From Nemertoderma westbladi (lineage: Eukaryota; Animalia; Xenacoelomorpha), in contig JAUCBJ010002610.1 in the NCBI GenBank assembly GCA_032718475.1, positions 15,782 through 79,781 on the forward strand: 64,000 nt of DNA. The letters run 5' to 3'. Positions within the stretch are counted from its first letter, which is position 1, and each line of letters opens with the position of its first letter. Position numbers and translations under genes: made by a program. Positions 35,906-64,000 of the stretch are shown here, piece by piece. The notes beneath the pieces are model-generated. The model searched no databases. It saw nothing but the letters and a program-made list of their open reading frames with translations, and was not told the origin of the DNA.

Positions 35906-36016
35906 CTAGAACCATAGTGAGTGATCAGTGGACATGGACAGGATTAAATTGGATAATATAAAATAAAAAATTAATGAAAGTATAGGCCTATTCTTATAAA
36001 ATAAACGGAGCGAAAA

Positions 36017-40144: not shown

Positions 40145-40359
40145 TGCAAATGTGTTCAGGCACCCGACAGCCCGACCGGGTATCAGCAAGTTAAGACACA
40201 ATCACTGAATTATGTTGATTTTAGTACATAGTCCTGTCAGCCTGTTGTCAGATAGTACCGGTACTGTGATACAGTACTACAGTAGTACTGTAGTAGGCCT
40301 AACGCTGTACCGTACTGCCGTATGCTATGCTGGACTGGTAGCCTATCCTATATACTGAT

Positions 40360-41130
40360 ACTATTCGACTGGGCGACCGACAACAGACTGAGTTTGAACT
40401 TTGACAAGAATAAATCAATTTTATTTGGGACACATCAATGTCTAGTCGACAACTGTGAATTGAAAGTATTTTGTAATGGGATCCACATAGAACAGCAAAA
40501 ATCTATTAAATACTTGGGTTGTTATTTAGACGCTGACTTTTCTGGAGATACCATGGCATCGCATGTCATTACAAAGGGGAACAAGACACTATGAAATTTA
40601 TTTACAGACATGGGGCAGATTTAGACGGTTATACACGTCGTCTTCTATGTAACGCTCTCATACAACCCCACTTGGGTTTCGTTTCCTCCTGTTGGTATCC
40701 AAGTGCTTCTAAACGGCTACAGCTGCAACTGCAAGCACTGCAAAGAAAATGTATTCGTTTTTGTCTAGGTCTCGGAAGTAGAACGCACATTGGCCAAGAG
40801 CATTATAATGAAATCTCATGGCTTCCGATAGAATCTCGCATCGATCATCAGCTAACAGCCAATCATGTATCGTATAACACAGTCGCTACCTTCCTCGTAT
40901 CTCTCATCATTATTGGTCCAGTTCAACTCTGTATCGGTTAATCTCTGACATGGATGTACTCGCGATGTGCCTTGCGACGAACTATAACGAAGTGAATGCT
41001 TCTCGTTTCTAGGGCCGTTGATATGGAACTCGCTACCATTGGATGTAAGAAACTCTGTCTCCCTGGAAACGTTCAAACACAAAGTCAAGAATTACTTTAC
41101 TCGACAAACTGGCAATGAAGGATAACTCGA
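40360..41130 (+). mobile_element. 3' fragment of an L2/CR1-group (Crack/Daphne-like) LINE, degenerate
   Basis: WATDNRLSLNFDKNKSILFG, IKYLGCYLD, LLCNALIQPHL..SSCWY, LQALQRKCIRF, F.FLGPLIWNSLP..V...SLETFKHKVK across frameshifts; followed by AT-rich degenerate repeats to ~41740. Confidence 0.8.
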
Positions 41131-43202: not shown

Positions 43203-43743
43203 GTTCGCGCTTTCAGACCTTCAGCAGTTTAACCTGCCAAATTTAGATGTCTTTAGATTATAAATAGACTTTAGCATATGACGAGTATTTGATGCACTAC
43301 ATTAGCCGAAGCCAGTCTATGCGCGACCATTCACCCGCTGGATATACCCGGGAGACTGGATTCGGAAGCTTTGACCTTATTGCGGTGTAGGCCTACTGTA
43401 TTATTCGACTGATCGTTAATATATAATTTCTGACAAATATTATTCACTTTCGGGAAATATCAACAGTTCCTTTTGGACGTGGCGCTCTAAATATGTAAAC
43501 AGAGTTATGACTTACACTAGACACAACGGGATGGCTATGGATTCACGTATAAAGCGCATTCTTTAGGAGATGCTTTGTTATCAGTCACAATCATGCACAC
43601 TACCGCACAATGCTGCACACCGATCTGCCGACCTTCACTAATTTTAGTCACATATAAAGAGAACAACAACCGACACATGTAGTGCCTATGAAATAGCATT
43701 AGATTCACTCCAAAACCACTTTAATGAAGTCGCAATTGCTATA

Positions 43744-44413
43744 TGTAACCGGTCTCTTACCTTCAGTATATCAAGAAGATTGGGGGTTTTATGATTATTT
43801 ATCGATATTATCCAAATATAATAATATTCCATCAACTGATATAATTAATAACCGACAGTGAATAGCAGTAAAAATGCGGTGTTTGTAGTTGACAATATGA
43901 TTTGCATTGATATGCAGTGTGTTGATTTGACATGCAGTGTGGTTTGATTTGATTTGATAACGGTTATACGTTTCTATGACCAAAGCCTACTAATGTTTTG
44001 CTAAAGTCTGAAACTTCCACAGAAGTACAGAAGAATCCTAAGCCGGTGTTCAGGGCTTAGAAAGATACACACACACTGACTGACTTGCATGAGTTTCTGT
44101 ATACAATCTCCAACACAGAGTGAAAACCGCTCTGATTGGTCGACCGAACAAAGAACGAACAAAGAACAAAGAAAAAGTTACACGTGGACACAGCTGATAG
44201 ATGTCGTCATCGGAGTTCCGATGTTTAGAGTATTTGGCTTATTGCGACATAAAATCGCTAGTTATGTCCGCTAAAGTACACATACAGAAGAAATGGCTTT
44301 TTATGTCCACTAAAACACCGGTACAGTAAGGAAACGGCTTTTTATGTCCGTTAAAACAACTACAGAGTACTTTGCGGGGAAAATAACCAGCTAATTCCGC
44401 AAAAGCCTTTACA
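43744..44413 (-). mobile_element. Putative 3' LTR of the BEL/Pao element
   Basis: On the - strand a purine-rich GGGAGCGG (PPT-like) directly precedes TGTAAAGG at 44413; candidate end GGTTACA at 43744 gives TGTAA...TTACA termini; CCAATCAG box inside. The 5' LTR is outside the window, so the distal boundary is unverified. Confidence 0.55.
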
Positions 44414-44699
44414 CCGCTCCCAGAAAATGGGATTTAATTCTATAAAATATAAAAAATCACAGTTTCTAAAATATAAAAATACTCTAAACAGTTAGTCCTT
44501 CTTACGCGGACGGCGTTTACGCAGTTTTTTGAGGCTTGCAAGAGTCCTTTTCTCTTTGGGGCGAGCCACTTTATTAGGAGGGCTATAACTCCTGGGTGAA
44601 GGGTGCAATACAATTGCATCAGAAGGTTTAGGATTACGATCGGTGTATCCGCCGGTCGAGGTACCTGGTTGATCGATATCAACTTCAGTGGAGCGAGGT

Positions 44700-47600
44700 C
44701 TAACGGCCTTTAGGGCGCGTCTTAGGACAGCAGCTCCTACTGGTCCCTGACGAGTCGTCTGGACAATAGCGGTAGGTGGACCGTGAGTGGTGAGGTTTAA
44801 TGGTTCTTTCCAGCTCGCGTTCTCGGGCTCGATATTCGTAGGGCCGTCGAGATACTTCCTGTAACTCAGGGTGCGAGTTAATAAATAAATCGCCATACTC
44901 AGGGTCTTGACGGATGAAATTGATCAAATGGTATGAATTAATATCGTTAGGATTGACGTTCCTGAGATATTTTCGAACAAATTTGGTGGAAATACACTCA
45001 CCAACACGCTTCATTAGTTCGTAACTCGGTGTGCGTATTTTTTGTTCAACAGATGTGAATAGATAAGGATGGAACGCGTAAACTCCCTCGTAGGCGCGTC
45101 CAGGGTAATAGCGATGGCGTGACTCACAATGCAAATCCGCGTTCGCTTCCCAAGCTCGGATGTAGCGCAGGGTAATCATCTCATCTACGCTTTCCAAATC
45201 GCGGTTAAAAGGGCAATTAAAACTGGCATGTCCTTTAAGTTGACAGTGGTGGCAGTGAGTCATAAATTGGGAGCAAACTGCAAAAATGTGCGAGTTATTG
45301 AGTCTGCAATACGCACAATAGATCTCCATCATCGGTTGTTCGTGGAAATAGGAGCAGGGTACGTCTGAGTCCATAGGGGTGAAATGATCTCTTAATGCGC
45401 ATAATCGGCAACGTTTTCGAGAAACATAGTTGGCGTGCCGATAATCGTATGCGGTGAGACATTGTGGACCTTGATACCATTCCAAGACGTAGTCGTTATC
45501 GCTGCTCCGGGGCGCTGTAGGCTGAATCTCCTCAGATTCTAAGCATATTGGTTCGTCTTCCAATTGCATCGCTGAGATAGGTGCGGCTGTCTCCGCAAGC
45601 GAACCCACTGTCTGAACTTCCACGACAGAATAACCCGTGGGTATTCGAGGTCTTTGTATAACAGATGAATGTAAGTTCTGTATACAAACGTCCTTGAAAA
45701 TGGCGAATCCCGCGCTGTCTAACTTCTCTGCAGCTGAGTCTCTTAGGCTGAGTTTGGTCAGAGCGCGGTCCTTGAACTGACTATCAACGTTACGGAACGG
45801 AGTCAGAAAGCGCCTAAAACATTCGAAGCGGATGAATTTATTGTGTTCATCTAGCTTGGCGAGTTTGGTTCCAAGTATTAAGGGATGGGCGCGTATGGTA
45901 CGACTGCACACATCGGCTAGCCAACCGGCAAGTGCGGCGTTTTCAAAGATCGTGTATATAGCTAAGGAGGGACGAAGTGGAACACTCATAAAGCTATACA
46001 CGGCGCCAGGTGCGGTCAATGGTCCGTCAAAGTATAATCGAGAATAATGATCTCCGTATACTTGTTGGTAGTTGATAGGATTTCCAACTTTGAAATTCCA
46101 TCCGTATTCTTGAAAGGCAAGATGTCCGATGGAGGTTCGTTGTACTTTAGTAATGCCGCTGGGTGTGGGGCGAGCCACGAAGTTGGCGGAGCCTTAGCGA
46201 ATTGACACTGTTAGGGGGTGGGTCAATTTATGCAAATAGTTGTCGTCGTCGTCGTCGTCGTCGTTGTCGTCGTCGTCGTTGTCGTCGTCGTCGTTGTCGT
46301 CGTCGTTACGATTTTGACATGCTAATAACTTTGTCGGATTTAAAGCTGCCAAGTTGAAAATTTGTAGGTATCAATATGAGCAAAAGTTGAGATTTTTGAG
46401 AGACTTTCAGACACCATCAGTGCAATGGTCTCCCGCTAGAGGGCCACATGTCTAAACATTAAATGGCCACCCATTTCTTTGCTTTTAATCCGTTTAAGCT
46501 GAAACTTGGGAAGTATGTACTAGACCATTAGCTGTAAATTTCAAAGGAGGCTAATCTGTCTGCAGTTCTCCAGTCTGCCGCTAGAGGGCGAAATGTCCCG
46601 AATGTGAAATTATTCTTCCATTTAGTTGTTTATGATCTGATTACGCTGAAACTTGTCATATATGTACTAGATGACATCCTGAGTCTTTGTGTGGATTGTA
46701 ATCGGTCCGAAGTTTTCCAGTCTCCCGCTAGAGGGCCACATGTCTAAACATTAAATGGCCACCCATTTCTTTGCTTTTAATCCGTTTAAGCTGAAACTTG
46801 GGAAGTATGTACTAGACCATTAGCTGTAAATTTCAAAGGAGGCTAATCTGTCTGCAGTTCTCCAGTCTGCCGCTAGAGGGCGAAATGTCCCGAATGTGAA
46901 ATTATTCTTCCATTTAGTTGTTTATGATCTGATTACGCTGAAACTTGTCATATATGTACTAGAAGACATCCTAAGTCTTTGTGTGGACAGTAATCGGTCC
47001 GGAGTTTTCGAGTCTGCCGCTAGAGGGCGAAATGTAGGAAAGTGATAACCTTTGCGAATTCCTTGATCTTAATCTATTTAAGCTGAATTTTGGAATATAC
47101 AGTACCGGTATGTACTAGACCACATGCCTCGTCTTTGTGAGGAAGGTGATCGATCCGTAGTTCTTTAATATGCCGCTAGAGGGCTAAATGTATGAAAGTG
47201 AAAACCTTCCAACATTTCGTTATTTATGATCCGTCAATCGGAAACTTGGTAGATATGTAATAGACCATAGGATGTGGCTTTGTAGGGAAACTAATCCTTC
47301 CTTCTTCAGTTACCCAGTCTCCCGCTAGAGGGTTAACGTTTTCCGGGAAAATCTTCTCCTATGTTTTTATAATCCTTTCGAGTTGATACTTAGCATTAAC
47401 TCATTTCACGTGCTGCGCGAAGGCCCCACTTCGTGTATTTGCATACATAGTGCGGAAGAAACCTCGGCCTTCTGCCCAGGGAGCAATCAGCTGAGTATCG
47501 ACGAAAGGGTATGGAATGTTTTCCATGTTCCGAAAGTCGTTTTGGAGATCGCCATAAACAGCTGAGCCGATTTTAAGGATTCTTTCGTTAAACAACACCT

Positions 47601-49983
47601 CGAGCACAGGCTGGGGTAACATCGATCCATCGATACCCATGGCCGGTTTGCGCTCGGTGTCGGTGACGTAACGCTGCGCGAGTTCGAATTGTCCATGTCG
47701 GAGTTTCTTTTGTGTCTCGGTAAGGGTCTCAAAAGAATAATCAATCACATCGGAACACGCTCGAGTAAATACGTGGGTAGAACCAGCTAGTCCTCGTATG
47801 TGTATCATTCTCGTACTTCCCAGTTCTCCAACCGGAACGCTACCTTCGTTATCGTAAGTGACAACTCCATACATCTCGATAACGTTAAGAGTCTCATTCC
47901 ACTCTTTAGTGGCGTTTTCTAGAGTCATTCCCACTGGATGCCACAAGGTAGCGCATTCGCTAGCATTAGGTAGATCTCTATACTTTAAATATTGCGTATT
48001 ATATGTCTCTACATCTCCATATCTTTCCACGTCGAGATTCCAGTGTACTAATCGAGTTTTGATGAATCCATCAAGATTATACGGAGGTATTGTCTCTTTC
48101 TCTATCCTGGAAACATTATAGGGTTTTCGAAATGAGTTTACTTTAACTAACTGATCAAGATGTTTCTGCAGTTGTTCGAGTTCGACAAGATCGAGAGGAT
48201 TTATTAGTGGTAGAAACCTCAGACTATGTGTAGGATCTTCCGGTTTTACCATGTAATATTGCGTTAGATTGACGTAATAAGGGTGATCTTTGATCCCATA
48301 AAACGAGTTCGGTAAAGGTCTAGCGCGTATGTTAACATCGTGTACCATACGACGGACAAGATCCGCTCTATTGTCCGGAGGTTCAACGAGTATACCATCG
48401 ACACGAGCAGCCTCGATTGGCGGACGTTGCAACATGGGAGCATCAGCGATAAGATCTCGAGATCTTAGGTTGATATCAACCGGTTGAGGCTGTGCCGTGG
48501 CGAAGAGTTTGTCTCCGAAATGGGGAACCATCGAAGGATGGATGATGGTTTTAGAATAGAGATCCGTCATAAGAATTTGAGCTTCTGGCTGGGCTAAAGC
48601 TGCTTCTTCTCTCTCATCCATTTCTATGTGTTTCTCCTCGAGCTGATTTTCCTCCGCTTGTTGTTGTAAACGCTCGTCTAGGAACTCTTGTAAAGAATAG
48701 GTGCGTCCACGTTCGATGTCTTCCTCGAGATCCTGGATTTCTCCATTGAACTGGGGTAAAGCTAATTCTTTCACCGCTTGGACTTGTTGCTGCAATTTGC
48801 GTTTCTCTAAACAATCGTAAGTTCCTTTTCCGATTTTCTGCCGAATAGCGTCTAAAGTGTTTCGTACAACGCTCTCTTCGACTTCAGTAACGGGTTGTAT
48901 CGGGTTTAAGCCTGGACGGTTGTACGGGTTAAACGGCGATATTAGATGACCGCGTCCTAATCCGGCTAGGTAGGGTTGGCGAATATCTAGTGAGCCCACT
49001 ACCGGAGTGCCACCGACTAACTGTTCGGGTAACACTAGATCTTTGAACAGTGAGTACAGTTCGGGAGGATCTGTGATACTATTAGGATCAAGAGTCTGAT
49101 GTCTCACTAGGGAGTGAGGAGGTCTGACCGAGTATTCTGGAACTCTGATCATAGGCTTATTTAAGGATCGTTTGAGTCGAGCGAGCGTAGGTGATACATC
49201 GAACAGGTTTCGCTCGAAACTCCCATAAGTATATCGTGTAAAACTGTGTTTAGCGCAACGTCTCCGCGGATGTTTATGTCTTTCCGTTTGCTGATTGGGT
49301 CTAGGGCATTCGTCGCAATAATACCAAAGACGCACGTCCCGCAGGGGAAACGCGGGTGATCGTTCTCCAGTTTTACAATATTCCTCCATCTGTTCGAAGC
49401 TATCTGGGACGACAGGTAGCGGTCGATCGGCGGTAAGATACATCATAGTGAAATAGAGTCGTTTGAGTTCTATCATAGGGTCATGATGTATACCTTGAGG
49501 ATATCGAGTTTCTAGATTTTGTTGACTGGCAATATTGAGATATGTTTCTCTCAGGAATTCCAGATAATCGTTGAAGTCGCTGCGTTTATCCGGCTCTTCA
49601 ACGTCTTCCCTTTCGAGTCTGTTTTGAATAGAATTCTCATGTTCTATTCTCGGTTTATCGTTCCAACTCCGCTGGGTATGATATTTAAATAAAACCATTT
49701 CCCTTTCGGTGTCTACATCGTCCGTATCGTGTAAATCGATAGGATGGCCAGTAGTTAAGAAGTCCATATACGTACCATTACGATGCGTATAGCGAGCGGT
49801 GAATTTTCTATAGTCCAATTCACGCGTAAGTTGCTCCTGGGACATTGGCGGTTCGATATAACGACCATCGTCCTCCGTAGTAGTTGGACCAGCGTCGCCG
49901 CGTATCAAGCTATCGACAAACGCTTGTAAAGGTAGAGTATATCGCTCCCTGATACCAAGATCATCTTCTATCAACTCAGTCAT
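44700..49983 (-). pseudogene. Extra ORF of the BEL/Pao element: ~1342-aa protein with DEDDy 3'-5' exonuclease and CCHC knuckles, split by an insertion at 46185-47439
   Basis: Removing 46185-47439 joins ORF 47401-49983 to ORF 44700-46178 in frame (RTMYA|NFVARP). Motifs GVVTYDNEG (ExoI), LPQPVLEVLFNERILKIGSAVYGDL (ExoII), FVDTQLIA, SIGHLAFQEYG, PLRPSLAIYTIFEN (ExoIII-like); CAYCRLNNSHIFAVC and CHHCQLKGHASFNC. Confidence 0.75.
46185..47439. mobile_element. Non-autonomous Helentron/DINE-1-like (HINE) element with internal ~146-bp tandem repeats
   Basis: Inserted in a T run with net +2 T; sub-terminal IRs GCGGAGCCTTAGCG / CGCGAAGGCCCCAC (11/14); hairpin AATTGAC...GTCAATT; (GTC)n microsatellite 46240-46305; 7 repeats of 145-156 bp including a near-identical 292-bp dimer. 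Confidence 0.78.
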
Positions 49984-51611
49984 ATCTGCTACATGAGTTT
50001 ATCAATATTATAATGAGTTTATATTTAGGCTAGCGGGCGTCGCTGCCTACCCCTCTCTGCCCCCGGACAGTGCAAGATCCTCAGCGCCGATGTACCGTCG
50101 TCGCTGTGTTTTCGCCAACGTAGTAGCTACACAACGACAACGATAACCGGCACAAGTCACTCCACTGTCCGTCCCAAAGGCTTAGATTTACTTCAGGTTC
50201 TTGCTGCAGAGTTAGGGCTACTTTCACAATTGCGACTCGCTACTGTAAACACACTTTAGTAGTAACATTCACCTATAAACGCACAAATTCCACACAACTG
50301 TCACAAATTGTACACGTTCGGGCCATTTGTCCGTTAGTCAAGTGCCTTCCAGAATGCCACGTTATTATTATGTATCCTTGGATACTAGCAGTGTGCTATT
50401 TATTCCCTATACTATTCAATGGGGTAAGCTTTCTATTGTTCTTTTAACTCACTTCTAATTCTAGCGTGGTTGTTGCTATGGTGACATTATGGAAAGCTAG
50501 CGGTAGAATTAGGGTAATTCTCATGCATACAGATCTGGGATGCTATTTAATAGTAATTCTTTAATTGTCAATATCCCCTTTATACATGATTTTATGAATT
50601 TTATCGGCTATTGACTATATATTGGAGATTCTCGCACACTAATACTTAATAGGGTGAATCTCCGCTCCCATGATCTATTAATTAATGTAATTTTCGGAAT
50701 GTTATAAATTGTATAAAAATAACAATTTATCAATTCATTAAAATATGAATTTAAATTTATTCCCGTAAATTTTATTATTTAATATTATAATAGACATAAT
50801 TTTATTCCAGAACATGTCTGGGGACTGGGATCCTTGATTCTAGGAAATTGGTCTTTTTAAGAATATCGGTAAGTGCTACGATATCTTAATAGACTAGAAT
50901 TTTAAAGGATCTGAATTTGACAGACTTTATAAATATTAATAATTAATATTTAAGATGGGCACCGGTTTATTCCAGAACTTGTCTGGGGACGTTAACCACT
51001 GATTCTAGAATTTTGTCTTTCAAGTATATCGGTGGGTGCCGCGATATCTTAATCGACTAGAATTACAGATGGTCAAAGGTTTTAACAGATTTATTTTGCG
51101 TTATACGCTACTGTTAAAGGGACATCACGCTACTATATGTATTATTTAATATACGTTATGAGAGCAATATCGCACGAAGCAATGTCAGTGAGAAGAGGCA
51201 AGTCGTTTCCAAGGTCTACCCAGAGCTTGGTTTAGCCGAGACACGAGGATCTGAATTTTGCATTCCTAATACTCTACTTACCAATAATACTTGAATATAG
51301 TAGGAGCTTTATTGTACTTTAATAAGTACGGATATTTCATCTTACTGTAGTTACGTATTTGTAATGTAATACGGACAGTAAGGGAAGAGAAAAACAATTA
51401 TTTCTCGCCGTCGCACTAAATATATAATATATAAGTAATTAAGTAATAAACGCGAATATATATTGCACTAATCTACTAGATAATCGCTAAAATAACATTC
51501 TACTAAATAAAATTAAAGAAAACGATTATAATAAAATTACATAATAATACCTACATAAATATAAAATAATAAAAACAAATATAAAATATAGTCACACACC
51601 CACTCCAGACG

Positions 51612-54600
51612 CTATTGCGTAGGGGAGTCCCTGGATGTTTGTTGGATTAGGGAGGTGGTCGTGGGAAGAGTATCTTGCCTTCCATAGTTTCCGGAGAGTT
51701 CTCGGTCTCTTTCCAGTAAACATAAACGACCAACTGGGCGATTGAGCTGCTGTGTCTCGAAGACAATTCCCGGTTTCTTAAAGTTACGTTGCATGACAAC
51801 GAGTTCTACCGATCGCACCAAACCATCATCCGAGATGTGAGTCTCGATGATACGACCTGTCTGCCACCGCTTACGTGGAAGATCTGAATCCACAATAAGG
51901 ACCATGTCTCCAGTGCTGACGTTTTCTTGCTGCGCAAACCACTTAGTTCGAAGTTGTAGCGTGGGCAGATAATGTTTTTCGAAATGGTCAGCGAAACGAC
52001 GGGATAACAACTGCATAAGTTGCCAAGTTTGCCGGCAGTATTCGTCTCCGTCTGTGATTTCCGAGCGTGGGAGCATGGCTACAGGTTTCTTCAGTAGGAA
52101 GTGCGCGGGTGTTAGCGCTTCCAGGGAATCGGGACTCGAGGAGACTGGCATAAGCGGTCTCTCGTTGAGATAGGCGGCGATTTCCTCCATTAACGTCCGC
52201 AAAAGTTCGTCGGTGAGATACGCGCGGCACGGCACTATGAAGTGAAATGCGGTCTTCACGCTCCTGATTAATCTCTCCCAACTTCCTCCCCACCAAGGGG
52301 CGTCGGCGGCGTTGAAGGTCCAGCTAGACGCTGTTACCCTTAGCTGATCGTCCACCTGTCTTTGGTTCCAATCTTTGACGTAAGCTTTGATTTCATTGTT
52401 GGCACCAATGAAGTTCGTTCCCTTATCAGATCTCATCGTGTTACTAGTTCCAAAGCGAGCGATCTGTCGCTGTAAGCTCAATAGGAAGCTGTTGGTAGAT
52501 AAATCGTTCACCATATCGTGATGGATAGCTCTACAAGTCATACAAACAAAGATGACACACCATCTCTTGACTATAGTCCTAGCACGATATACTTCAATTG
52601 GGCCAAATAAATCTACACCAGTATTAGTAAAGGGTGGTTCATAGAAGCTTACTCGTTCCCTAGGTAATTCTGCCTCTCGATGTGTTAAAGGCCTACTGAA
52701 TGCTTTCCTACAGGGTATGCAGTTCCTAAGAACTTGGTTCAGAGCTCTACGGGGTTTATAAAAATAATAGCGAGTTCGAATTTCGCTAAGAACTCGTTCT
52801 CTACCAGCATGATAAAGTTTGCTGTGGACATCTACAATCATCTTGATTTGTATTTCAAGATTTCTAATGAGTATGGGAAACTTGGTGTCAAAGGATAATG
52901 GAGCATTAGTTAATCTTCCTCCAACACGTATCAACGCATCTATCATTGTGCTAGAGAAACGATCCCTTAAGCGCATCTGTGGATTTCTCAACAACAGGAA
53001 ATACTTATCGGAATCCTCATAGCATTGCAGGAGTCTCAGCATCTGCTTGTTGGTTTCTTCATGCTCCTGATAACTGATCTTCTCCTTCAGAAACCTGTCG
53101 GATATCTTATATTTGGGAAGATCTTTAACAACATGGACCTGCACAGATGTCAGTGGAGCGGTATCACTATTGGTCTTCGCCCTGGAGTAGTGATGATAAA
53201 AACATCGCTTTAAATATGTAACGGCCTTACAGAGCCGATTCCAGGAACTGTAGTGATATATCGCTCTCTGCAGGAGAGGTGAGAGTCCTTGCGAGACATC
53301 TGGTATTCCAGATTTCCAATCCCTCTCTCTGATTTCCACAACAGACTTATTTGTGGCTGTGGGTTTCGGATCCGAAGCGTCGTCTCCGGAAGTGTGTAGT
53401 ACAGACAGATCTACCACGGGTTTAAATAACTTCGATTTACTCGCCCGAGTTTTAGGTTTGACTTTCTCCGCTCCCTTGGCCTGTCTAATCTCTGCCGTAG
53501 TAAGATGAGGAGGCCATTCATCCTCTTCTTTGCTTAGGAAGTCGGGTCCACCTAACCAGTCTGGAGTATCTATCAGTTCTTGTGGAGTTGCTCCCCTGGA
53601 GGCGATGTCTGCTGGATTAATCGTTCCGGGGCAATGTCTCCATTGATCCATCTTCGTGCGACTAAGTATAATGGCTACTCTGTTGGTAACGAAGATGCTG
53701 AACTGACAGACTTCATTGGTTATATACTCCAACACGAGTAAAGCATCGGTCCAATAGACAGTTTTCTCCAGTGGATAGTCGATCTGTTCTGTTACATTCC
53801 GGCCGATGGCTGTAGCGTATAAAGCCGCTTTTAACTCCGCTTGAGGAACTTTCAACTTGTTGTTTATCAATGCCTTAGAGGTAACCAAGGCGACTTTGAT
53901 TCCATCCGGAGTTTCCACTCTCAGGTAGGCTACTATACCTATTCCCATATCGCTGGCGTCTCCAAACACATGGAGTTGATAGGAATACGTAGGGAGAACA
54001 TGACCAAAATATGAACGGGAAATTATAAAGTTCTCGATGGCTGGTAGAGAATCTTCCCATTTCATCCACTTCTTTAATAATTCTCCCTTAAGTGGATCGT
54101 CCCATGAGTGGTTTTCAAGCCACATTTGTTGTACTAAACTCCGAGCAATCAATATAACTGGGCTAATAAATCCCAATGGATCGAAATAAGTGCTCAGGAT
54201 ACTTAAACAAATCCGTTTAGTCCGAACTGGATTATCTCGCTGTTTTAGCTGGAAAAACAGGATATCTCTCTCTGTGTCCCATTTCAAACCAAGTGTCTTG
54301 GTTTCTGGAAGATCATCTTTGATTAGGTCTAGGTCTTTCGCTCCTCGATCTTTTACCGGGATCGATTCTAGAAACTCACGGGAGTTGCTGGTGAATTTAG
54401 TTAATCAAAATCCACCTCTTTTTAAGCACTCTACCGTTCCTTTGGCGACATCAATGGCTTCTTCCACAGATGGAAGGGACTTTAAATTGTTGTCCATGTA
54501 TATATCCCGTTTGATGTTGTCGATCACCTCTTTTGAGAAGGCGTCCTGGTTGTCATCAGCAGTGGTGCGCACCACTGAGCAGGCGTTTGAAGGGCTTGAG

Positions 54601-57176
54601 ATGATCCCAAAAGCCTGGATGGTCATCCAATACTCCACCGGTTTCTGGTTGAGGTCTCCTTCAGGACACCACAGAAATCGTAGGCTGTCTCGATCCCTAT
54701 CCAGCGCCTTGACTTGTAAGAACATGCCTTCTATGTCGGAGGCGAAAGCGATTGAATATTGTCATAATCTTAAGAGTATTCCCAACAAGGATTGGAGTAA
54801 GTTGGGTCCTGGTAACAACTCGGAATTAAGGGATTGGCCCATGTAGAGGGCGGAGCCGTCAAATACTACTCGTACCTCATGGGGTTTACCAGGTTTGGGA
54901 ACGTAATGATGTGTTAAATAGTACGTTCTCTCAGTTAGGGGTGTTCCTTCCGGTACTCGCTCCGCATATCCCTTGTTAATAAATTTCTTCAACTGAGTCT
55001 GATACATTTCTTTAGCTGAAGCATTTGCCGTAAGGCGTCGATGTAGTTGAGCAATTCTTTTCTCCGCCAAGGGTCGGTTGTTTATGAATTTTGGTTCTCG
55101 CTTTCGGAATGGGAGACCGATTTCATATCTACCTTGATCTTTAAGAAAACGTGTAGTTGTCTCCTGGATCTGCTTGGCTTTCTTCTTCTACCGATAGGGC
55201 CTTATCGTAGGAATTGGGCTCTACAGCCTCTTGAGTAAAGAATCGTACGGCGTGTTCATCTCGAGTTTTCGCGTTATATCTCTCGATTACGTCATTCAGT
55301 TCGTCGTTATAGTCGACTTGTCCTGATGGACGAATGACTTGACATAGGTTCACTTGGTTTTGCCAAGTCTCGTTTTCCGTAAGGATATCGATGGTATTCT
55401 CCTCGTCAAAGAGCTGGTGGATATCGTCATTATCTGAGGAGTATGGTGTTCCCTCAGTTGGGTCGTCAACTTCACTGCTCTCCACTTCCCATTCACTTAA
55501 TTGATATACCTGTTCTTTTGGTAATCTTTCCATGAGAGTTCTACGGGAAGGGCCAGTAAAGTACCAACCTACTCTAGTTCTTCCCGCATAGACTTGTAAT
55601 GGTTGCGGTTGAGCAGGCCGTTTCTCCAATGTCTCAAGCGCTTCATGCGCATTTTGGCCGATGAGTATTTGCACTCCAGGGTAATCTGTGTTGAATCTAG
55701 GTATATTAAGCTGCTGGGTGGAATCGTCCTCATCCCAGTTATAAGGTTCTACTTGGCTGGTAGCGAAGTTCTTTATCGCCACCATTTTTACTGACCTTAT
55801 ACGGTGTTCTCCTAGTTCATCCTGGGGGGTGGACAACGCACCTACATAATAATCTGCTATTACTGTAGATTTCCAAACCTGCATAATTCCTGACATGTTT
55901 AACTTAGTTCGGAACTTGGGTTGTCCAGCAAAGATGTCTTCGGCTAGTTCTTTGTCGATGAATGTTCCTGTGCTACCGGAGTCAAGGAGGGCGTTCACTA
56001 TATAACTCCTTTCAGGTCCATGGACCCTCAACTGCACTACGGGAAATTCTCGGATTCCTACATTGGAAGTTGGAGCTTTCCAAGATGGTTGTCGGTCAGA
56101 AGTAGTTAGGGGGAGCTCGCTGTCGGTGTCCTTTTCATACGTAAGTGCTCGATACACTGCGGTATTTATCAGGTAACAGGATTCGTTTTCATCGGAGAAT
56201 TCGTCCGTATAGAATCCTTCCATCTCAGAACTTTGGTCAGTGTCGTTCACATCACTGAATTGGACATGCAGTTCGGAATCACTTACCTGACTCGGGCTGT
56301 TTCGTTCGAATTCAGTATGCAACAAGAGATGATGTTTTGCGCCGCACTTCGCACACCTTGCGTCTGAGTAACAGGTTCGCCGTTGGTGTCCTTGTCTGAG
56401 GCAATTATAACACAACCGCTTATCCCACATGACTTCCCGTCTATCCTTTAATGATTTCTTTAGGAATTCATCACACACATTCAAACGGTGGGTCCCGTCA
56501 TATAGCGCACATTTCGGTTTGATATTACTTACCTTATTTTGAGTAACGTTGTGCACACTCGTTCTTTCTTCGGGCTTTCTTACCTGAATTCTCTTAGGAG
56601 ACGTAGGAGGAGTTTTTCTTACCTGTTCTCTCCTGTCATTGGTTCGAGACTTGAATTTACTTACGTCTTTAGGCGTTTTATTGACATAATAAGATCTTTC
56701 AGTGTCTTTCCCGCTGTCTTCTTCTTGAGAAGCCTGGCTTTCGCCGTCGTCGGTATAACACACTGGTGTTGCCTTTCTCCTAGAAACGGGTTTCTCACTT
56801 ACCTTGTTTTCCGGTGTCTTCTCTCTGGACTGCTTTAGGAGCTGTAATTTCACTTCTCCATCTAAGAATGACATGAGATCAGCCATGGTAGGGTCTCGTC
56901 GTTGTTGTTCCATCATATATAACACTTTCTTATCCCAGCGTGTGCCTACTCCACCCTTAGGTAAAGTTGAGGCCACGGCTCCAATAACCATAGAACTCTG
57001 ATATTCATGAGACTTACCTAGCCAATCTAATTGTCTACAGATCTCTTGAATCTCATCGGAAAACTCTATAATCCCGCTGCTAATGAACTTTAGGGGCGCT
57101 ACCAATTTTGCATACAAATATTTGGCTATGTTATTCCTATTACCATACCTGATGTTTAGTGTATCCCAAACTTGTC
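51612..57176 (-). pseudogene. BEL/Pao gag-pol polyprotein (one frameshift, two nonsense codons, N-terminus cut off)
   Basis: Gag VWDTLNIRYG, CYNCLRQGHQRRTC, CAKCGAKHHLLLH; PR ALLDSGSTGTFI; RT VRVVFDGS, LLPGPNLL, SDIEGMFLQV, IYMDN; RNase H LHVFGDAS, YWTDA; IN DLFGP, SDKGTNF, WWGGSWERLIRSVK. Frameshift near 55180; TGA stops at 54762 and 54405. Confidence 0.93.
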
Positions 57177-57299
57177 TTAAACTTAGGTTTTGGATTAACC
57201 GGAACGACGTTTTACGTGGCGTATTCATAATTACAGGATTAATAAAGGCAAGGAAGGGTCTTTCACCACGTGGATATATAAAAAATGAAGTTAATTATT

Positions 57300-57341
57300 T
57301 ACCGTATGGCCATTTCACCCTCGCGGGCGTCTTCAGCGGTA
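57300..57341 (-). ncRNA. Minimal type I hammerhead ribozyme in the pLTR
   Basis: TACCG CTGAAGA C GCCC-GCGA-GGGT GAAA T GGCC ATA^CGGTA: stem I TACCG/CGGTA, CUGANGA and GAAA cores, GNRA-capped stem II, short palindromic stem III. Confidence 0.85.
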
Positions 57342-57972
57342 TATTCAATTAAAATAGCGTTAAAATATAGTTTAATTTAAAAATTAGTTCACAATTTAAA
57401 AGTTTAGGGTACCTACCAAGCAGCATTTACAGTAAATAATGGGAAATTTTACATTGAAATATTTAGGGGCCTAATTAAAACAGTGAAACGTTGTGAGTAC
57501 CGGTAGTGCAGTTGCATAGTTGTGGTGGGGCTACGGCACTACAGCCTAAGCACTGACTGCCTGTCATCAGGCTGCATACGTGTACCGTGTGTACGGTATG
57601 TTGCACCTTTACAGTAGTTGCTAAAAGATAACCAAGTAAACATAATTTATACAGTAGGTAGTTAATTGCGGGTGAGTGGCTTGAGAAACTTAATAATATA
57701 TGTGTTATTTTGCACCAAATAGTTAAACATTAGAAAAATTAATAATATATGTGTTATTTTGCACCAAACATTTGAACAGTAGAAAATTAAAAATAATATC
57801 AAAGATTAAAACTAAGCAAATGTGTTACTGGAAATAAGTTAAGTTAAGTGCATATTTATACAGTAGTTATTGCACTTAATAAATTTATCAAATTATTAAT
57901 AAATAAGTCTACATACAGTAGATAGTTAGTATCGGGTGGGTGGCAGGATTAACATGATTAAATTATTTTGCA

Positions 57973-60900
57973 TTACATAGAAGGTATAACTTTATTAAGA
58001 GTTGGGTGGATCATATTAATGTAACAGGACTCTGCATGAACTCGTCGCTGGTGGTTGCGGAACTGTTTAAAGCAGGTTACGGTCAGTTGGTCTATTTCAC
58101 AGTTAGTGAAATGTTGTAGGAGAAGGATTTCGGGGCTAGTTGGGTCGCAGCCTTTACGGGCTTCCCTAATACTATGTCTGTGCTTATTAAGCCGGTCGTG
58201 GAGGAATTGTTCCGTCTGGCCGATGTAGAAATCACTCGGATGAGTTCTACAGGAGATAATGTAGAGCACATTGTGGGATTTGCAGTTAAAGCGGCCGTGA
58301 ATGGATTCATTCCAGTGTGTTTTACGAAGGTTTGTAATGGCTAGACAACATAAGCAACGGGGAGCGCGACATTGGTGATTACCTACCGGGATAAGTGGGT
58401 CTAGTTTACGTATAAGCATTTGTCCAAGGTTTGGGAGGTTGCGTGGGACGGGTTTAATGGCAATACCTATGTTACTAAGGTGGTTTTGATGCCGGGCGAT
58501 GGTTTTGGACATAGATGTTAAAAAATAAGGAGTTGTGGGTATGTAGATGGGGGGAGGGTGAGTATGCTGTATAGTGGTGTAGGTGGCGGGTAACTGTTTG
58601 GCTGGTTTCCATAGATACATTGATAGTAAGAAGTTTAGTGGGTATCCTCTAAGTTTGCATAGTTCCAAGTAATTATGGCGGGTGACATTAAAAAGGTTAT
58701 CTGAGTCAGTAAGTCTGCGGTAACGGAGGATTTCAGCTTTAACAACTGCGAGTAGGGTGGGTTTATGGTGAAAACTAGCGTATAGGATGGGTAATTTATT
58801 GGACATGGGCTTCTTATATAGGTGGGTAAGTAATTTGTCATCCTGGCGGTATATTGTGAGGTCAAGGTAGTTTAAGGTGGAGTAGGAGTGTTCTATGGTG
58901 AATTGTATTGAGTTCGTATTATATAGTTCGAGGCAGGCTTGGTTGAGTGACGTTTTCAAACCACTTAACTCATTGGTGTTGAGTTCCCTATCGAATTCAA
59001 CAATGCTATCGTCAACGAGTGTTTTAAAATACTGGGCTGAGTAAAGGGTGGTATTTAGGGCTCGCTTGAGGACTCTGCATGAGGCTATAACGGCATAATC
59101 ACCGCTATGTGAGCCTCCCATGGGCGCACCAGAGATTTGGAGGTAAAATTTGTCACTATACCTAAAAAAGTTATGGTAAAGTAGAAACCTTAGTATAAGA
59201 CATAACTGATATGGCGTGAAAATAGACCGGTGTGGCAGGGATGGGTCTTCGGTAAGTGTTTGCATAGTGGCTTGTAACCCGAGCTCGTGTGGAATACTAG
59301 TAAACATATCGACTACATCTACTGCGATGAGAGTACATGATGAGTTATTGAGGTGGGTAGGCATTGTGTGTTTTAAATGTAATGAACTACAAAGATAATT
59401 GGACGAGTTAGTGACTAGAGGGTGTAAGTAGAAATGCATCAATTTAGAAAGTGGTGAGAAAAAGGCGTCAGTATTGGATATAATTGGTCGGCCTTTAGGG
59501 ATTAGTTTACCGTTTGGGTGTTGGATCCATTCCTCTTTGGGTTTGTGATCTTTGAGGGAGATAAAAATGTGGCCTGTGGTAAAAGTATTGGGAAATAGGT
59601 GCGTTTGGAGTTCGGGGTTGCGTAACGACAGTTCACGTAGGAGGGCTCGACATTTGACACGGAAGCGGGCGGTTGGATCTTTAGTTAGTTGTTCGTAGGT
59701 TGTAGTGTCGCTGAGGATCCTTAGGATTTCAAAGTGTTTATCGGCGGTATCTAGTAGAATAATGTTACCGGTTTTATCTCCTTTGAGGAAGGAGACATCT
59801 TTAATTTTCTTAAGAGATTGGAGAGCAGTGAGTTGAGATTTATTTAAGTTAGGGGGGTGTTGGTTGTTGTATCGCTGTAGATTAATTGAGTTGGTTGTTT
59901 TGTGTAGGTCGTGTATAAGTGATTCTATGCCAGGGTCATCGGCGCGGGGGGCGACGTATCTTGCGTGGCGGTAGAATGGGGGGTCGGGTGGTTCCGGGTC
60001 GATATTGGGTTGTTCGGTAATCGTATTTAGCTTCGTCACTCGTGGTAGGGTGCGCGTTGTCGGTGTTCGCGTTTTCGAACGTGTTCGCGATGATGGCGTG
60101 TCTAGGGGTGTGCATGGGCCTCGCGACGGTGGTGGGTGGGACGGCAGGTTGTGGGGGTCATCGAGTGGGGTAGTTGGTATGTATGTGTATGTTGGGGCAA
60201 TCGGCGGTGCTGGCTCAACATCGGATGTTTGTTCGGTGTTTAGTGCCGGGAACAAACAGCGTTGTGCCGACTTACGGGTGCTCGGTTTATATATGGCGGA
60301 AATTGGTGGTTGCCCTGGCAACGCGGCGGCAAACGTATCCGTTGGCGGGAGGATCGGCCGGTGGGTGGGAGTTAGAATGGTCGGGTTCGATCCGTGGTTG
60401 CCGTTGGTGGGTGGGGGATTGTGGTCCGCTAATCTCCGACACCGATTGCGGAGTTTGGTCGCTGCGATGGCCATGTCGACGTGGCTATCGAAACGGTCGG
60501 TGTTCGTTATACCTCTGTTGGGAATAAAGGTAAAACCGAGGCCTAGTAAGTCGTGCTGGTCTTTGTCTAATGTGATACTCGAAAGATTGGTGACTGGTGC
60601 TTGCGCTTGGGGAAAGGGGTTAGTAGCTTGGGCGTCTTCGGGAGCGATATCTTTAACATTGAACCGTCGATTGGTATCCGGGTGGCTTGGAGGGCGCAGG
60701 ATGTTGTCCATTGTCTCGTAGCCGCAGTCGAAACTGTATTTGTAATCTAGACGGTAACACGTTACGTCGATTTCTCTGTCCTCTACTACCGGTAGCCAGT
60801 AATTTAAGAAGTTGATGCTATCAGTGTTGTACCGTGCACTCGCTTGTACTCTGTTAAGGTGGTATTTGAATTCGCGTTTCAGTTTGCGTAGTCTACTAAA

Positions 60901-61164
60901 TCTATCGCTGATCTCAGTTCTAAATACTCGTGCGAGTAGACCGTTGTAGAGCGAAGGGTAGAACTTCAGGATCTGGCTGATTCTAGGAACAATGAACGAA
61001 GGCGGGAAGTTGGATTCCCTGGCGGATTTAAAGTATTGGATTTGGTATTTAGTGCGTGCTTGGTGGATCCTAATTTTAAGACACATCCGAATGTCGTTTG
61101 CTGCCCTTGGTGTTAAACTTAGGTTTTGGATTAACCGGAACGACGTTTTACGTGGCGTATTCAT
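57973..61164 (-). CDS. Penelope-like RT plus GIY-YIG endonuclease (1063 aa, intact)
   Basis: KGDKTGNIILLD, KDHK, GRPIIS, AVDVVDMFTSIP, QISGAPMGG, LVDD, LNYLDL, LYKKP; Neptune-like Cys linker CRAPRCLCC...FNCKSHNVLYIISC...FYIGQT...RLNKH; E..YI....P.LN. Confidence 0.95.
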   Translation of the reverse strand: MNTPRKTSFRLIQNLSLTPRAANDIRMCLKIRIHQARTKYQIQYFKSARESNFPPSFIVPRISQILKFYPSLYNGLLARVFRTEISDRFSRLRKLKREFKYHLNRVQASARYNTDSINFLNYWLPVVEDREIDVTCYRLDYKYSFDCGYETMDNILRPPSHPDTNRRFNVKDIAPEDAQATNPFPQAQAPVTNLSSITLDKDQHDLLGLGFTFIPNRGITNTDRFDSHVDMAIAATKLRNRCRRLADHNPPPTNGNHGSNPTILTPTHRPILPPTDTFAAALPGQPPISAIYKPSTRKSAQRCLFPALNTEQTSDVEPAPPIAPTYTYIPTTPLDDPHNLPSHPPPSRGPCTPLDTPSSRTRSKTRTPTTRTLPRVTKLNTITEQPNIDPEPPDPPFYRHARYVAPRADDPGIESLIHDLHKTTNSINLQRYNNQHPPNLNKSQLTALQSLKKIKDVSFLKGDKTGNIILLDTADKHFEILRILSDTTTYEQLTKDPTARFRVKCRALLRELSLRNPELQTHLFPNTFTTGHIFISLKDHKPKEEWIQHPNGKLIPKGRPIISNTDAFFSPLSKLMHFYLHPLVTNSSNYLCSSLHLKHTMPTHLNNSSCTLIAVDVVDMFTSIPHELGLQATMQTLTEDPSLPHRSIFTPYQLCLILRFLLYHNFFRYSDKFYLQISGAPMGGSHSGDYAVIASCRVLKRALNTTLYSAQYFKTLVDDSIVEFDRELNTNELSGLKTSLNQACLELYNTNSIQFTIEHSYSTLNYLDLTIYRQDDKLLTHLYKKPMSNKLPILYASFHHKPTLLAVVKAEILRYRRLTDSDNLFNVTRHNYLELCKLRGYPLNFLLSMYLWKPAKQLPATYTTIQHTHPPPIYIPTTPYFLTSMSKTIARHQNHLSNIGIAIKPVPRNLPNLGQMLIRKLDPLIPVGNHQCRAPRCLCCLAITNLRKTHWNESIHGRFNCKSHNVLYIISCRTHPSDFYIGQTEQFLHDRLNKHRHSIREARKGCDPTSPEILLLQHFTNCEIDQLTVTCFKQFRNHQRRVHAESCYINMIHPTLNKVIPSM

Positions 61165-61235
61165 AATTACAGGATTAATAAAGGCAAGGAAGGGTCTTTC
61201 ACCACGTGGATATATAAAAAATGAAGTTAATTATT

Positions 61236-61277
61236 TACCGTATGGCCATTTCACCCTCGCGGGCGTCTTCAGCGGTA
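61236..61277 (-). ncRNA. Minimal type I hammerhead ribozyme, second pLTR copy
   Basis: Identical to 57300-57341 at offset 3936. Confidence 0.85.
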
Positions 61278-61908
61278 TATTCAATTAAAATAGCGTTAAA
61301 ATATAGTTTAATTTAAAAATTAGTTCACAATTTAAAAGTTTAGGGTACCTACCAAGCAGCATTTACAGTAAATAATGGGAAATTTTACATTGAAATATTT
61401 AGGGGCCTAATTAAAACAGTGAAACGTTGTGAGTACCGGTAGTGCAGTTGCATAGTTGTGGTGGGGCTACGGCACTACAGCCTAAGCACTGACTGCCTGT
61501 CATCAGGCTGCATACGTGTACCGTGTGTACGGTATGTTGCACCTTTACAGTAGTTGCTAAAAGATAACCAAGTAAACATAATTTATACAGTAGGTAGTTA
61601 ATTGCGGGTGAGTGGCTTGAGAAACTTAATAATATATGTGTTATTTTGCACCAAATAGTTAAACATTAGAAAAATTAATAATATATGTGTTATTTTGCAC
61701 CAAACATTTGAACAGTAGAAAATTAAAAATAATATCAAAGATTAAAACTAAGCAAATGTGTTACTGGAAATAAGTTAAGTTAAGTGCATATTTATACAGT
61801 AGTTATTGCACTTAATAAATTTATCAAATTATTAATAAATAAGTCTACATACAGTAGATAGTTAGTATCGGGTGGGTGGCAGGATTAACATGATTAAATT
61901 ATTTTGCA

Positions 61909-64000
61909 TTACATAGAAGGTATAACTTTATTAAGAGTTGGGTGGATCATATTAATGTAACAGGACTCTGCATGAACTCGTCGCTGGTGGTTGCGGAACT
62001 GTTTAAAGCAGGTTACGGTCAGTTGGTCTATTTCACAGTTAGTGAAATGTTGTAGGAGAAGGATTTCGGGGCTAGTTGGGTCGCAGCCTTTACGGGCTTC
62101 CCTAATACTATGTCTGTGCTTATTAAGCCGGTCGTGGAGGAATTGTTCCGTCTGGCCGATGTAGAAATCACTCGGATGAGTTCTACAGGAGATAATGTAG
62201 AGCACATTGTGGGATTTGCAGTTAAAGCGGCCGTGAATGGATTCATTCCAGTGTGTTTTACGAAGGTTTGTAATGGCTAGACAACATAAGCAACGGGGAG
62301 CGCGACATTGGTGATTACCTACCGGGATAAGTGGGTCTAGTTTACGTATAAGCATTTGTCCAAGGTTTGGGAGGTTGCGTGGGACGGGTTTAATGGCAAT
62401 ACCTATGTTACTAAGGTGGTTTTGATGCCGGGCGATGGTTTTGGACATAGATGTTAAAAAATAAGGAGTTGTGGGTATGTAGATGGGGGGAGGGTGAGTA
62501 TGCTGTATAGTGGTGTAGGTGGCGGGTAACTGTTTGGCTGGTTTCCATAGATACATTGATAGTAAGAAGTTTAGTGGGTATCCTCTAAGTTTGCATAGTT
62601 CCAAGTAATTATGGCGGGTGACATTAAAAAGGTTATCTGAGTCAGTAAGTCTGCGGTAACGGAGGATTTCAGCTTTAACAACTGCGAGTAGGGTGGGTTT
62701 ATGGTGAAAACTAGCGTATAGGATGGGTAATTTATTGGACATGGGCTTCTTATATAGGTGGGTAAGTAATTTGTCATCCTGGCGGTATATTGTGAGGTCA
62801 AGGTAGTTTAAGGTGGAGTAGGAGTGTTCTATGGTGAATTGTATTGAGTTCGTATTATATAGTTCGAGGCAGGCTTGGTTGAGTGACGTTTTCAAACCAC
62901 TTAACTCATTGGTGTTGAGTTCCCTATCGAATTCAACAATGCTATCGTCAACGAGTGTTTTAAAATACTGGGCTGAGTAAAGGGTGGTATTTAGGGCTCG
63001 CTTGAGGACTCTGCATGAGGCTATAACGGCATAATCACCGCTATGTGAGCCTCCCATGGGCGCACCAGAGATTTGGAGGTAAAATTTGTCACTATACCTA
63101 AAAAAGTTATGGTAAAGTAGAAACCTTAGTATAAGACATAACTGATATGGCGTGAAAATAGACCGGTGTGGCAGGGATGGGTCTTCGGTAAGTGTTTGCA
63201 TAGTGGCTTGTAACCCGAGCTCGTGTGGAATACTAGTAAACATATCGACTACATCTACTGCGATGAGAGTACATGATGAGTTATTGAGGTGGGTAGGCAT
63301 TGTGTGTTTTAAATGTAATGAACTACAAAGATAATTGGACGAGTTAGTGACTAGAGGGTGTAAGTAGAAATGCATCAATTTAGAAAGTGGTGAGAAAAAG
63401 GCGTCAGTATTGGATATAATTGGTCGGCCTTTAGGGATTAGTTTACCGTTTGGGTGTTGGATCCATTCCTCTTTGGGTTTGTGATCTTTGAGGGAGATAA
63501 AAATGTGGCCTGTGGTAAAAGTATTGGGAAATAGGTGCGTTTGGAGTTCGGGGTTGCGTAACGACAGTTCACGTAGGAGGGCTCGACATTTGACACGGAA
63601 GCGGGCGGTTGGATCTTTAGTTAGTTGTTCGTAGGTTGTAGTGTCGCTGAGGATCCTTAGGATTTCAAAGTGTTTATCGGCGGTATCTAGTAGAATAATG
63701 TTACCGGTTTTATCTCCTTTGAGGAAGGAGACATCTTTAATTTTCTTAAGAGATTGGAGAGCAGTGAGTTGAGATTTATTTAAGTTAGGGGGGTGTTGGT
63801 TGTTGTATCGCTGTAGATTAATTGAGTTGGTTGTTTTGTGTAGGTCGTGTATAAGTGATTCTATGCCAGGGTCATCGGCGCGGGGGGCGACGTATCTTGC
63901 GTGGCGGTAGAATGGGGGGTCGGGTGGTTCCGGGTCGATATTGGGTTGTTCGGTAATCGTATTTAGCTTCGTCACTCGTGGTAGGGTGCGCGTTGTCGGT
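61909..64000 (-). CDS. Second copy of the Penelope-like RT/GIY-YIG ORF (5' part outside the window)
   Basis: Translation matches the C-terminal ~690 aa of ORF 57973-61164. Confidence 0.93.
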   Translation of the reverse strand, partial: PTTRTLPRVTKLNTITEQPNIDPEPPDPPFYRHARYVAPRADDPGIESLIHDLHKTTNSINLQRYNNQHPPNLNKSQLTALQSLKKIKDVSFLKGDKTGNIILLDTADKHFEILRILSDTTTYEQLTKDPTARFRVKCRALLRELSLRNPELQTHLFPNTFTTGHIFISLKDHKPKEEWIQHPNGKLIPKGRPIISNTDAFFSPLSKLMHFYLHPLVTNSSNYLCSSLHLKHTMPTHLNNSSCTLIAVDVVDMFTSIPHELGLQATMQTLTEDPSLPHRSIFTPYQLCLILRFLLYHNFFRYSDKFYLQISGAPMGGSHSGDYAVIASCRVLKRALNTTLYSAQYFKTLVDDSIVEFDRELNTNELSGLKTSLNQACLELYNTNSIQFTIEHSYSTLNYLDLTIYRQDDKLLTHLYKKPMSNKLPILYASFHHKPTLLAVVKAEILRYRRLTDSDNLFNVTRHNYLELCKLRGYPLNFLLSMYLWKPAKQLPATYTTIQHTHPPPIYIPTTPYFLTSMSKTIARHQNHLSNIGIAIKPVPRNLPNLGQMLIRKLDPLIPVGNHQCRAPRCLCCLAITNLRKTHWNESIHGRFNCKSHNVLYIISCRTHPSDFYIGQTEQFLHDRLNKHRHSIREARKGCDPTSPEILLLQHFTNCEIDQLTVTCFKQFRNHQRRVHAESCYINMIHPTLNKVIPSM

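Follow-up and report, generated by a model that had tools for sequence, protein, structure and literature searches.

Among retroelements, exonuclease genes of the DEDDy type have been described in rotifers, where the elements Juno and Vesta and the Terminons carry a third open reading frame (ORF3) with the motif DEED, whose activity was untested there (Rodriguez et al. 2017, PMC5408684); the main text of that report mentions no Pao elements. In the BEL/Pao retrotransposons (Belpaoviridae), an env-like gene is the only third gene described and the elements measure 4.2-10 kb (profile of the International Committee on Taxonomy of Viruses, ICTV, PMC8742986), with long terminal repeats (LTRs) of 0.2-1.2 kb according to the body of the same profile. 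Here we analyse a locus in the animal Nemertoderma westbladi in which a multi-copy gene with a predicted DEDDy exonuclease domain, called the cargo gene below, follows the pol gene of a BEL/Pao element. The window is the whole stretch analysed, 64,000 nt of contig JAUCBJ010002610.1, and all positions are counted within it. A first-pass annotation of the window, made from the letters alone, had proposed an interrupted gene for a non-env exonuclease with zinc knuckles inside the element; its observation is confirmed in part and its interpretation partly supported, while the rotifer precedent to which it appealed is upheld by the main text of PMC5408684.

Two ORFs on the minus strand, which is also that of pol, do exist as annotated: ORF-A (49983-47401), of 860 aa from its ATG, and ORF-B (46193-44700), of 497 aa from stop to stop. 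The parts of the gene and its surroundings are:

47433..49983, minus strand: 5' part of the cargo gene, with about 700 N-terminal aa without a family match, then the motifs ExoI and ExoII.
46163..47432, no strand: nested dispersed repeat of 1,270 nt, non-coding, placed by contig joints, its boundary ambiguous by 4 nt.
44700..46162, minus strand: 3' part of the cargo gene, with an ExoIII-like Y-x3-E (45956-45942) and three CCHC-type clusters (from 45410, 45317 and 45254).
44492..44794, minus strand: likely true C-terminus, shifted out of frame here, with a basic tail like a nuclear localization signal (NLS); loose ends in 3 runs.
49984..51500, minus strand: AT-rich multi-copy spacer ahead of the cargo ORF, covered in 4/4 runs.

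Contigs from four public runs of four studies (X1, X3, X4 and X5) were compared with 43300-51500; X3 and X4 share one organism label, X5 has another, and X1 is possibly the window's own source. In X1, X3 and X5 contigs connect 46162 directly to 47433, and in X4 a contig connects 46155 to 47435 with 9 letters in between. Since other copies lack the insert, ORF-A and ORF-B are one gene, and the skipped 1,270 nt agree with the frame offset between them; the insertion had been proposed before, with a length of 1,255 nt that needed correction. The insert, which contains tandem cores of about 146 nt and a GTC microsatellite, is a dispersed repeat, because 23 X4 contigs diverge into unlike flanks at 46164 (agreement 0.43). 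Further loose ends, read by eye, stand at 44794/44795 in X1 (12 and 5 contigs), X3 (9) and X4 (2), and show a short frameshifting deletion near 44794 as the second break of the window copy. In other copies the reading frame likely continues through the basic-tail ORF 44492-44794, where 13 of the last 25 aa are K or R. The ORF 44492-44896 had indeed been suspected of holding the true C-terminus, which is likely, by way of a frameshift; a programmed one was rejected, since the difference in other copies at this place is a short indel. The window copy was thus broken twice, by the later 1,270-nt insertion and by the deletion near 44794. The product of uninterrupted copies is likely about 1,400 aa long (850 + 456 + 99 codons), instead of the roughly 1340 aa annotated for the fused protein, and these codons contain no in-frame stop besides the two breaks.

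All 30 bins of 43300-51500 are covered in all four runs, with 56,745 contigs in X1, and therefore the region is a repeat family. The best-supported 40 of 1,371 variants include 26 within ORF-A or ORF-B; of the other 14, left out of the count, 13 fall outside coding sequence or within the insert, and the remaining one, at 44675 in the tail region, proved by hand to be a synonymous change when read in the tail's frame. Synonymous changes account for 16 of the 26 coding variants listed, where random change would give 22-28% (p 4e-4), the sample being small and chosen by the tool, yet not by codon position. Those with less than 90% share are synonymous in 9 of 11 cases, and those with at least 90% in 7 of 15 (p 0.10). 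The cargo gene is multi-copy and, on this 26-site sample, apparently under purifying selection. Internally deleted forms are also abundant, with depths in the hundreds to thousands, 45561-49616 having a depth of 2,918 in X4, where it mainly occurs, and 44645-48612 one of 1,437 in X3, contig depth not being copy number. Their abundance suggests that an element can do without its own copy of the gene in cis, and is as expected for a product acting in trans. Another deleted form, 49746-49956, occurs in X1 and X3, and the deleted forms differ from run to run; depth in X4 has a sharp peak at 44396-44669.

With respect to the protein, all the motifs quoted in the first-pass annotation are present in ORF-A and ORF-B. 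The N-terminal region of about 700 aa holds a Cys/His cluster at aa 223-246 and an acidic helical stretch. ExoI is represented by D711 and E713 and ExoII by D812, and the third motif in the window copy reads Y-x3-E, with the replacement of the ExoIII Asp by Glu that had already been pointed out; all four catalytic positions are acidic and the ExoIII Tyr is present. The placement of ExoI and ExoIII follows the motif spacing that we assume for the family, and an alternative ExoIII closer to the insert was rejected by eye for want of Y-x3-D spacing. All three CCHC clusters that had been claimed can be found, of which just one has the canonical CX2CX4HX4C spacing and two are variant, with Pfam zf-CCHC_3 staying below the cut-off (E 0.33 and 0.12). 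No hydrophobic or transmembrane segment occurs in ORF-A or ORF-B by Kyte-Doolittle hydropathy, no dedicated predictor being used (19-residue maxima 1.06 and 1.19), and env identity was rejected on this ground, in agreement with the earlier view.

The family assignment comes from two methods. In the ESM Atlas, 28 of 30 hits to residues 640-860 belong to PF01612 (top score 0.92, 171 shared features), the best family hits agree in 10/10 cases with family shares of 17-40% of members, and rotifer-rich clusters rank 3 and 18; shuffled proteins score 0.9 in 4-10 per 100. We also built our own profile from 40 bacterial PF01612 domains and queried it with the domain, reading through the break as X. The domain's score was 9.1 bits, while the highest among 200 shuffles was 3.2; hhalign returned E 1e-4 and a probability of 56%, and two 20-sequence subsets had weaker margins (2.8 against 1.0 and 5.7 against 2.6 bits). 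Several results weigh against the assignment. Pfam PF01612 gave no match for ORF-A or ORF-B with E limits of 1 and 10, and no relative was found in Pfam, in the PDB, or for the whole of ORF-A among 1.84 billion protein representatives. Likewise, protein searches with ORF-A 400-860 (near lengths) and ORF-B (longer lengths), a search of metagenome contigs with ORF-B and a phage search returned no relative, and tblastn of both ORFs matched none of 83 loci. The ESM Atlas gave no usable match for ORF-B 10-200, the part with ExoIII, and our own profile aligned only the ExoII region (about aa 790-838). A single-sequence AlphaFold model of ORF-A 560-860, with a predicted local distance difference test score of 28.8, was too low for use. 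The DEDDy domain announced at first pass appears through the Atlas and the profile and is missed by the Pfam and PDB searches. Overall we consider it likely that the protein is a remote member of the DEDDy fold, in which D, E and D make up the first two motifs and Y-x3-E the third.

The gene lies on the strand of pol, with pol 1.6 kb upstream, and the element there is a decayed BEL/Pao with protease, reverse transcriptase (RT), RNase H and integrase domains. This bears out the first identification of pol: Peptidase_A17 (E 5e-36), DUF5641 (E 1e-20) and Integrase_H2C2 are over the Pfam cut-off, and among 352 relatives the best 120, which share 29-40% identity, are polyproteins of BEL/Pao without any PF01612 domain. 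A search of viral contigs with pol found nothing, and neither did a 20-nt pattern searched there. For the ends of the element, the BEL/Pao criteria used were a polypurine tract (PPT) about 10 nt before the 3' LTR and a tRNA-Arg/Gly primer-binding site (PBS) after the 5' LTR. The relevant features are:

51612..54404, minus strand: BEL/Pao pol from the RT end to integrase, 930 aa open, by Pfam and relatives.
51596..51610, minus strand: site A, PPT-like with TG directly after the pol stop, from a motif scan; candidate LTR start or internal/relic PPT.
44411..44425, minus strand: site B, PPT-like with TG after the cargo ORF, from the sequence; candidate start (44413) of the 3' LTR.
43300..44413, minus strand: candidate 3' LTR with 39-nt tandem repeats, multi-copy, covered in 4/4 runs; its end was not found.

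The placement of the ORF between pol and a 3' LTR, as first proposed, is unconfirmed; it agrees with site B, which follows the ORF, and had overlooked site A. Site A passes the PPT-like filter and site B fails it; site A resembles the LTR junction of relative L005, and site B that of L020. For comparison we turned to metagenome contigs, in which at least 548 BEL loci were confirmed, and used the best 80; of these, all distant relatives, 16 keep at least 2 kb past pol. Nine were chosen with an upstream repeat copy inside the contig: their LTR begins 28-429 nt past the pol stop and, in 8 of the 9, 94-480 nt past the last conserved pol motif, the boundary in L017 being without TG and possibly inexact. 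Ten relatives have long ORFs 3' of pol: BLAST identifies five of these as gag from collapsed circles, those of L035, L053 and L073 resemble gag N-termini by eye, and that of L025 is antisense; Pfam gave no match of note for L035, L053, L073 and L017.

An internal position is consistent with the strand shared by pol and the cargo ORF, with the unbroken multi-copy cover and with several further observations. No BEL-type PBS was found between pol and the cargo ORF, where the best match to the PBS words of four relatives has at least 5/16 mismatches, and the DNA after site A is not homologous to that after site B (best E 8e-4, AT-rich). A candidate PBS at about 50090 was rejected, as these letters form the 3' arm of the hairpin described below and fit no BEL-type PBS word, and a transposon with terminal inverted repeats (TIRs) was rejected for want of a noteworthy repeat around the cargo ORF. 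Having no PBS and no TIR, and with unrelated DNA after the two sites, the cassette is therefore unlike a self-contained LTR or TIR element. Among the best 24 of 2,318 loose ends, none with unlike flanks lies between pol and the cargo ORF. A number of findings count against an internal position. None of these 24 with unlike flanks lies at site B either; depth drops after site B and is lowest at 43848-44121, within the candidate LTR, and it is high in the spacer after pol in X1, X3 and X5. Site A stands 142 nt past the last conserved pol motif, where the LTR of relatives begins, and 0/80 related loci have a match to the cargo ORF or another third ORF. The element would surpass 13 kb against the 4.2-10 kb of the ICTV profile, and the CpG observed/expected ratio is 1.2-1.3 in the cargo ORF against 0.9 in gag and pol. 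The loose ends listed and the contig depth, which is no measure of copy number, amount to hints. The location is open to both readings, because site A is as good an LTR start and none of the 80 related loci has the ORF; on balance we judge it moderately likely that the cargo gene is internal to the BEL/Pao element as its ORF3.

Regarding the alternatives on location, the BEL/Pao LTR may begin at site A and the exonuclease gene be a separate mobile unit beside or in that LTR, which we hold to be rather unlikely. Such a unit would agree with the canonical position and look of site A, with the different CpG content of the ORF, with a spacer depth in X1, X3 and X5 that often exceeds the depth of the ORF body several-fold, and with an abundant X4 deleted form, seemingly limited to about 44400-50400. 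It has, however, no PBS, TIR or matching LTR pair of its own, the loose ends listed show no flank junction in the spacer, and the spacer excess is missing in X4, where a contig spanning 49849-50258 runs through the cargo ATG; the depth argument is moreover limited by the difference between contig depth and copy number. Retroviral LTRs can encode accessory genes, and on that model the gene may lie in the U3 of a giant LTR starting at site A (more than 7 kb without the insert), site B being a relic of a donor element. This accords with site A, with the unbroken multi-copy cover between 51500 and 43300 and with the lack of flank junctions among those listed, but BEL/Pao LTRs are reported at 0.2-1.2 kb and no second copy is visible in the window, so that we regard it as quite improbable.

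Ahead of an internal ORF3, the spacer holds a further feature:

50087..50150, minus strand: long 64-nt hairpin, about 100 nt 5' of the cargo ATG, from folding.

Its energy is -33.1 kcal/mol (z -5.0, reached by 0/200 shuffles) against -14.9 on the opposite strand; it is the strongest 70-nt window of 43300-51500, and its stem has four G-U pairs as read from the structure. Stability on the sense strand only suggests that the hairpin may have a role in RNA. In size it is like a precursor microRNA; Rfam had 0 matches across 41000-64000. Immediately before the cargo ATG stand a TATA-like word and AG-CAG, which would be compatible with an internal promoter or a splice acceptor.

What is established is one gene across the insert, present in many copies with a synonymous excess and a soluble-looking product without a membrane segment, next to a BEL/Pao pol. 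The account that we favour for it goes further, and we offer it tentatively, as having somewhat less than an even chance in its entirety: in a large BEL/Pao family, a third gene other than env would encode a nuclear RNA-binding 3'-5' exonuclease of about 1,400 aa, which acts in trans and shields element transcripts from host silencing. The gene would sit between pol and a 3' LTR beginning at 44413, and site A would then be a PPT that is internal or a relic, dating from the capture of the cassette. Expression might proceed through a subgenomic RNA, made from its own promoter or by a splice in the spacer and carrying the hairpin in its leader, and the basic tail could direct nuclear import. Air-type knuckles serve Rrp6, and by analogy the CCHC clusters may bind RNA and pass it on to the exonuclease. 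The latter would then act in trans on RNA ends, protecting element transcripts from silencing. The weakest step is the choice of substrate, host silencing or antisense RNAs as opposed to RNA or cDNA of the element itself, a doubtful proposition that we still put first. An extended form is unlikely to hold as a whole: a BEL/Pao lineage would have captured a DEDDy nuclease independently and fused it with zinc knuckles and a nuclear signal, giving a catalytic anti-silencing protein that trims or destroys host RNAs of the PIWI-interacting RNA pathway, possibly from within a giant LTR.

Other functions are also conceivable for the favoured gene. Wherever it is located, its product may be a pseudo-nuclease, a non-cutting binder of RNA ends or of host factors comparable to EXD1 and Maelstrom, both named as inactive DEDD derivatives in the main text of PMC5408684. 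The Glu in place of the ExoIII Asp, two insertions into the domain, of about 45 and 24 aa by the WRN spacing that we assume, and the very low similarity to known enzymes would fit this; yet the four positions stay acidic with the Tyr present, and rotifer ORF3s with one Asp-to-Glu change were judged possibly active in the same text, and we think an inactive protein unlikely, if worth keeping in mind. With a similarly low probability, the nuclease may serve the element's own cycle by trimming 3' ends of RNA, primers or cDNA, the knuckles being a second nucleocapsid. This was the function first proposed for the rotifer ORF3s (main text of PMC5408684), and the DEDDy domains of Dada were proposed to process transposition ends (main text of PMC3706591). 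With the gene in 0/80 related loci, however, it is not generally needed for BEL/Pao replication, and the NLS-like tail and the separate ORF speak against packaging. A chance resemblance to exonucleases, or a host fragment copied neutrally, would explain why no homologue appears in Pfam, the PDB or the protein databases, and the shuffled proteins reaching 0.9 in the Atlas show how such a score can arise; but two separate methods indicate one family, the copies have a synonymous excess, and about 1,400 codons are free of stops save for the two breaks, which makes this explanation very improbable.

The surrounding DNA is dense in repeats, and on the minus strand a Penelope-like tandem, gag/protease, a broken RT, pol and the cargo gene follow one another. 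The remaining parts are:

57174..64000, minus strand: tandem Penelope-like insertion, which splits gag; from a repeat match and an ORF.
55141..57173, minus strand: BEL/Pao gag (3' part) and protease, by DUF1759 (E 3e-4) and Asp_protease_2 (E 0.011), both under the cut-off.
54405..55187, minus strand: RT region, interrupted by one frameshift and two stops, from ORF pieces and sequence.

We take the last to be RT by its motifs, Pfam giving no match. In the tandem, 57174-60064 recurs head-to-tail at 61110-64000 with 99.97% identity, and the copies hold an intact ORF of 1085 aa that we presume to be Penelope-like from RT and GIY-YIG motifs, neither of which Pfam returned; the insertion into BEL gag is very young. 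The 5' part of the BEL/Pao element and its 5' LTR sit past the window end, beyond the tandem, and no LTR pair was found within the window. Elsewhere, an uninterrupted 823-aa ORF at 4166-6637 (plus) has an F-box (E 1e-6), a leucine-rich-looking C-terminus and a coiled region, and is possibly an intronless host gene or a retrocopy. At 12866-14906 (plus), two overlapping ORFs look like RT and a restriction-like endonuclease, presumably of a CRE/SLACS-type non-LTR element, without a Pfam match; at 15790-18872 (minus) are probable DNA transposon ORFs (DUF7869, E 1.5e-5), upstream of which lies a long tandem repeat that is itself coding. Approximately 19714-36000 is occupied by a 41-nt satellite of strong GC skew, in about 360 copies, and two short ORFs at 40286-40941 (plus), without a Pfam match, resemble what we take to be the C-terminal part of a CR1/L2-type long interspersed element.

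As to earlier reports, no exonuclease cargo of BEL/Pao was found in titles and abstracts, Repbase, subscription journals and supplements being outside the search, and the word "exonuclease" is missing from the main text of the four surveys covering BEL/Pao among PMC6338049, PMC3118150, PMC8220671, PMC8556966, PMC6238403, PMC6431247 and PMC3706591. If the cargo gene is internal, BEL/Pao would be the third retroelement class to gain an exonuclease cargo, after rotifer Juno/Vesta and the Terminons, which would indicate a recurring need rather than a rotifer oddity, and BEL/Pao third genes would reach beyond env. A nuclease that is selected, nuclear-looking and predicted to bind RNA would be a candidate for a retrotransposon-encoded countermeasure to small-RNA silencing in animals. 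If the gene is instead part of a separate unit, this would be a high-copy mobile element, also worth finding.

Host EXD1, Mut-7/Nibbler, WRN-exo and Rrp6 have PF01612-type domains and roles in small-RNA or nuclear RNA pathways; the cargo protein has no detectable sequence match to them and no HRDC, helicase or Lsm domain was seen in it, and, unlike these host genes, the cargo gene is multi-copy and linked to an element. Dada DNA transposons are likewise mobile elements with a DnaQ-like exonuclease, but theirs is a domain within the DDE transposase and retains all four catalytic residues (main text of PMC3706591). The rotifer Terminons (Athena/Penelope-like) are retroelements with a DEDDy exonuclease among their accessory ORFs, whereas they belong to the non-LTR Penelope class and are attached to telomeres (main text of PMC6431247). 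With the Belpaoviridae the element upstream shares the order Gag-PR-RT-RH-IN (PR, protease; RH, RNase H; IN, integrase), Peptidase_A17, DUF5641, DUF1759 and the style of the PPT+TG junction, as given in the main texts of PMC8742986 and PMC3118150. The closest likeness, by description and not by sequence, is to ORF3 of Juno and Vesta (main text of PMC5408684), a non-env ORF 3' of pol that encodes an exonuclease of the RNase D/WRN type without a transmembrane segment. Each has one catalytic Asp changed to Glu, giving DEED in rotifers and DEDE here, whereas the pol of Juno and Vesta includes a dUTPase and their LTRs are short (159-551 bp), and the cargo protein adds a long N-terminal region, three CCHC clusters and a basic tail. 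The cargo gene is a probable third gene of BEL/Pao and would work like the DEDDy ORF3 cargo of rotifers.

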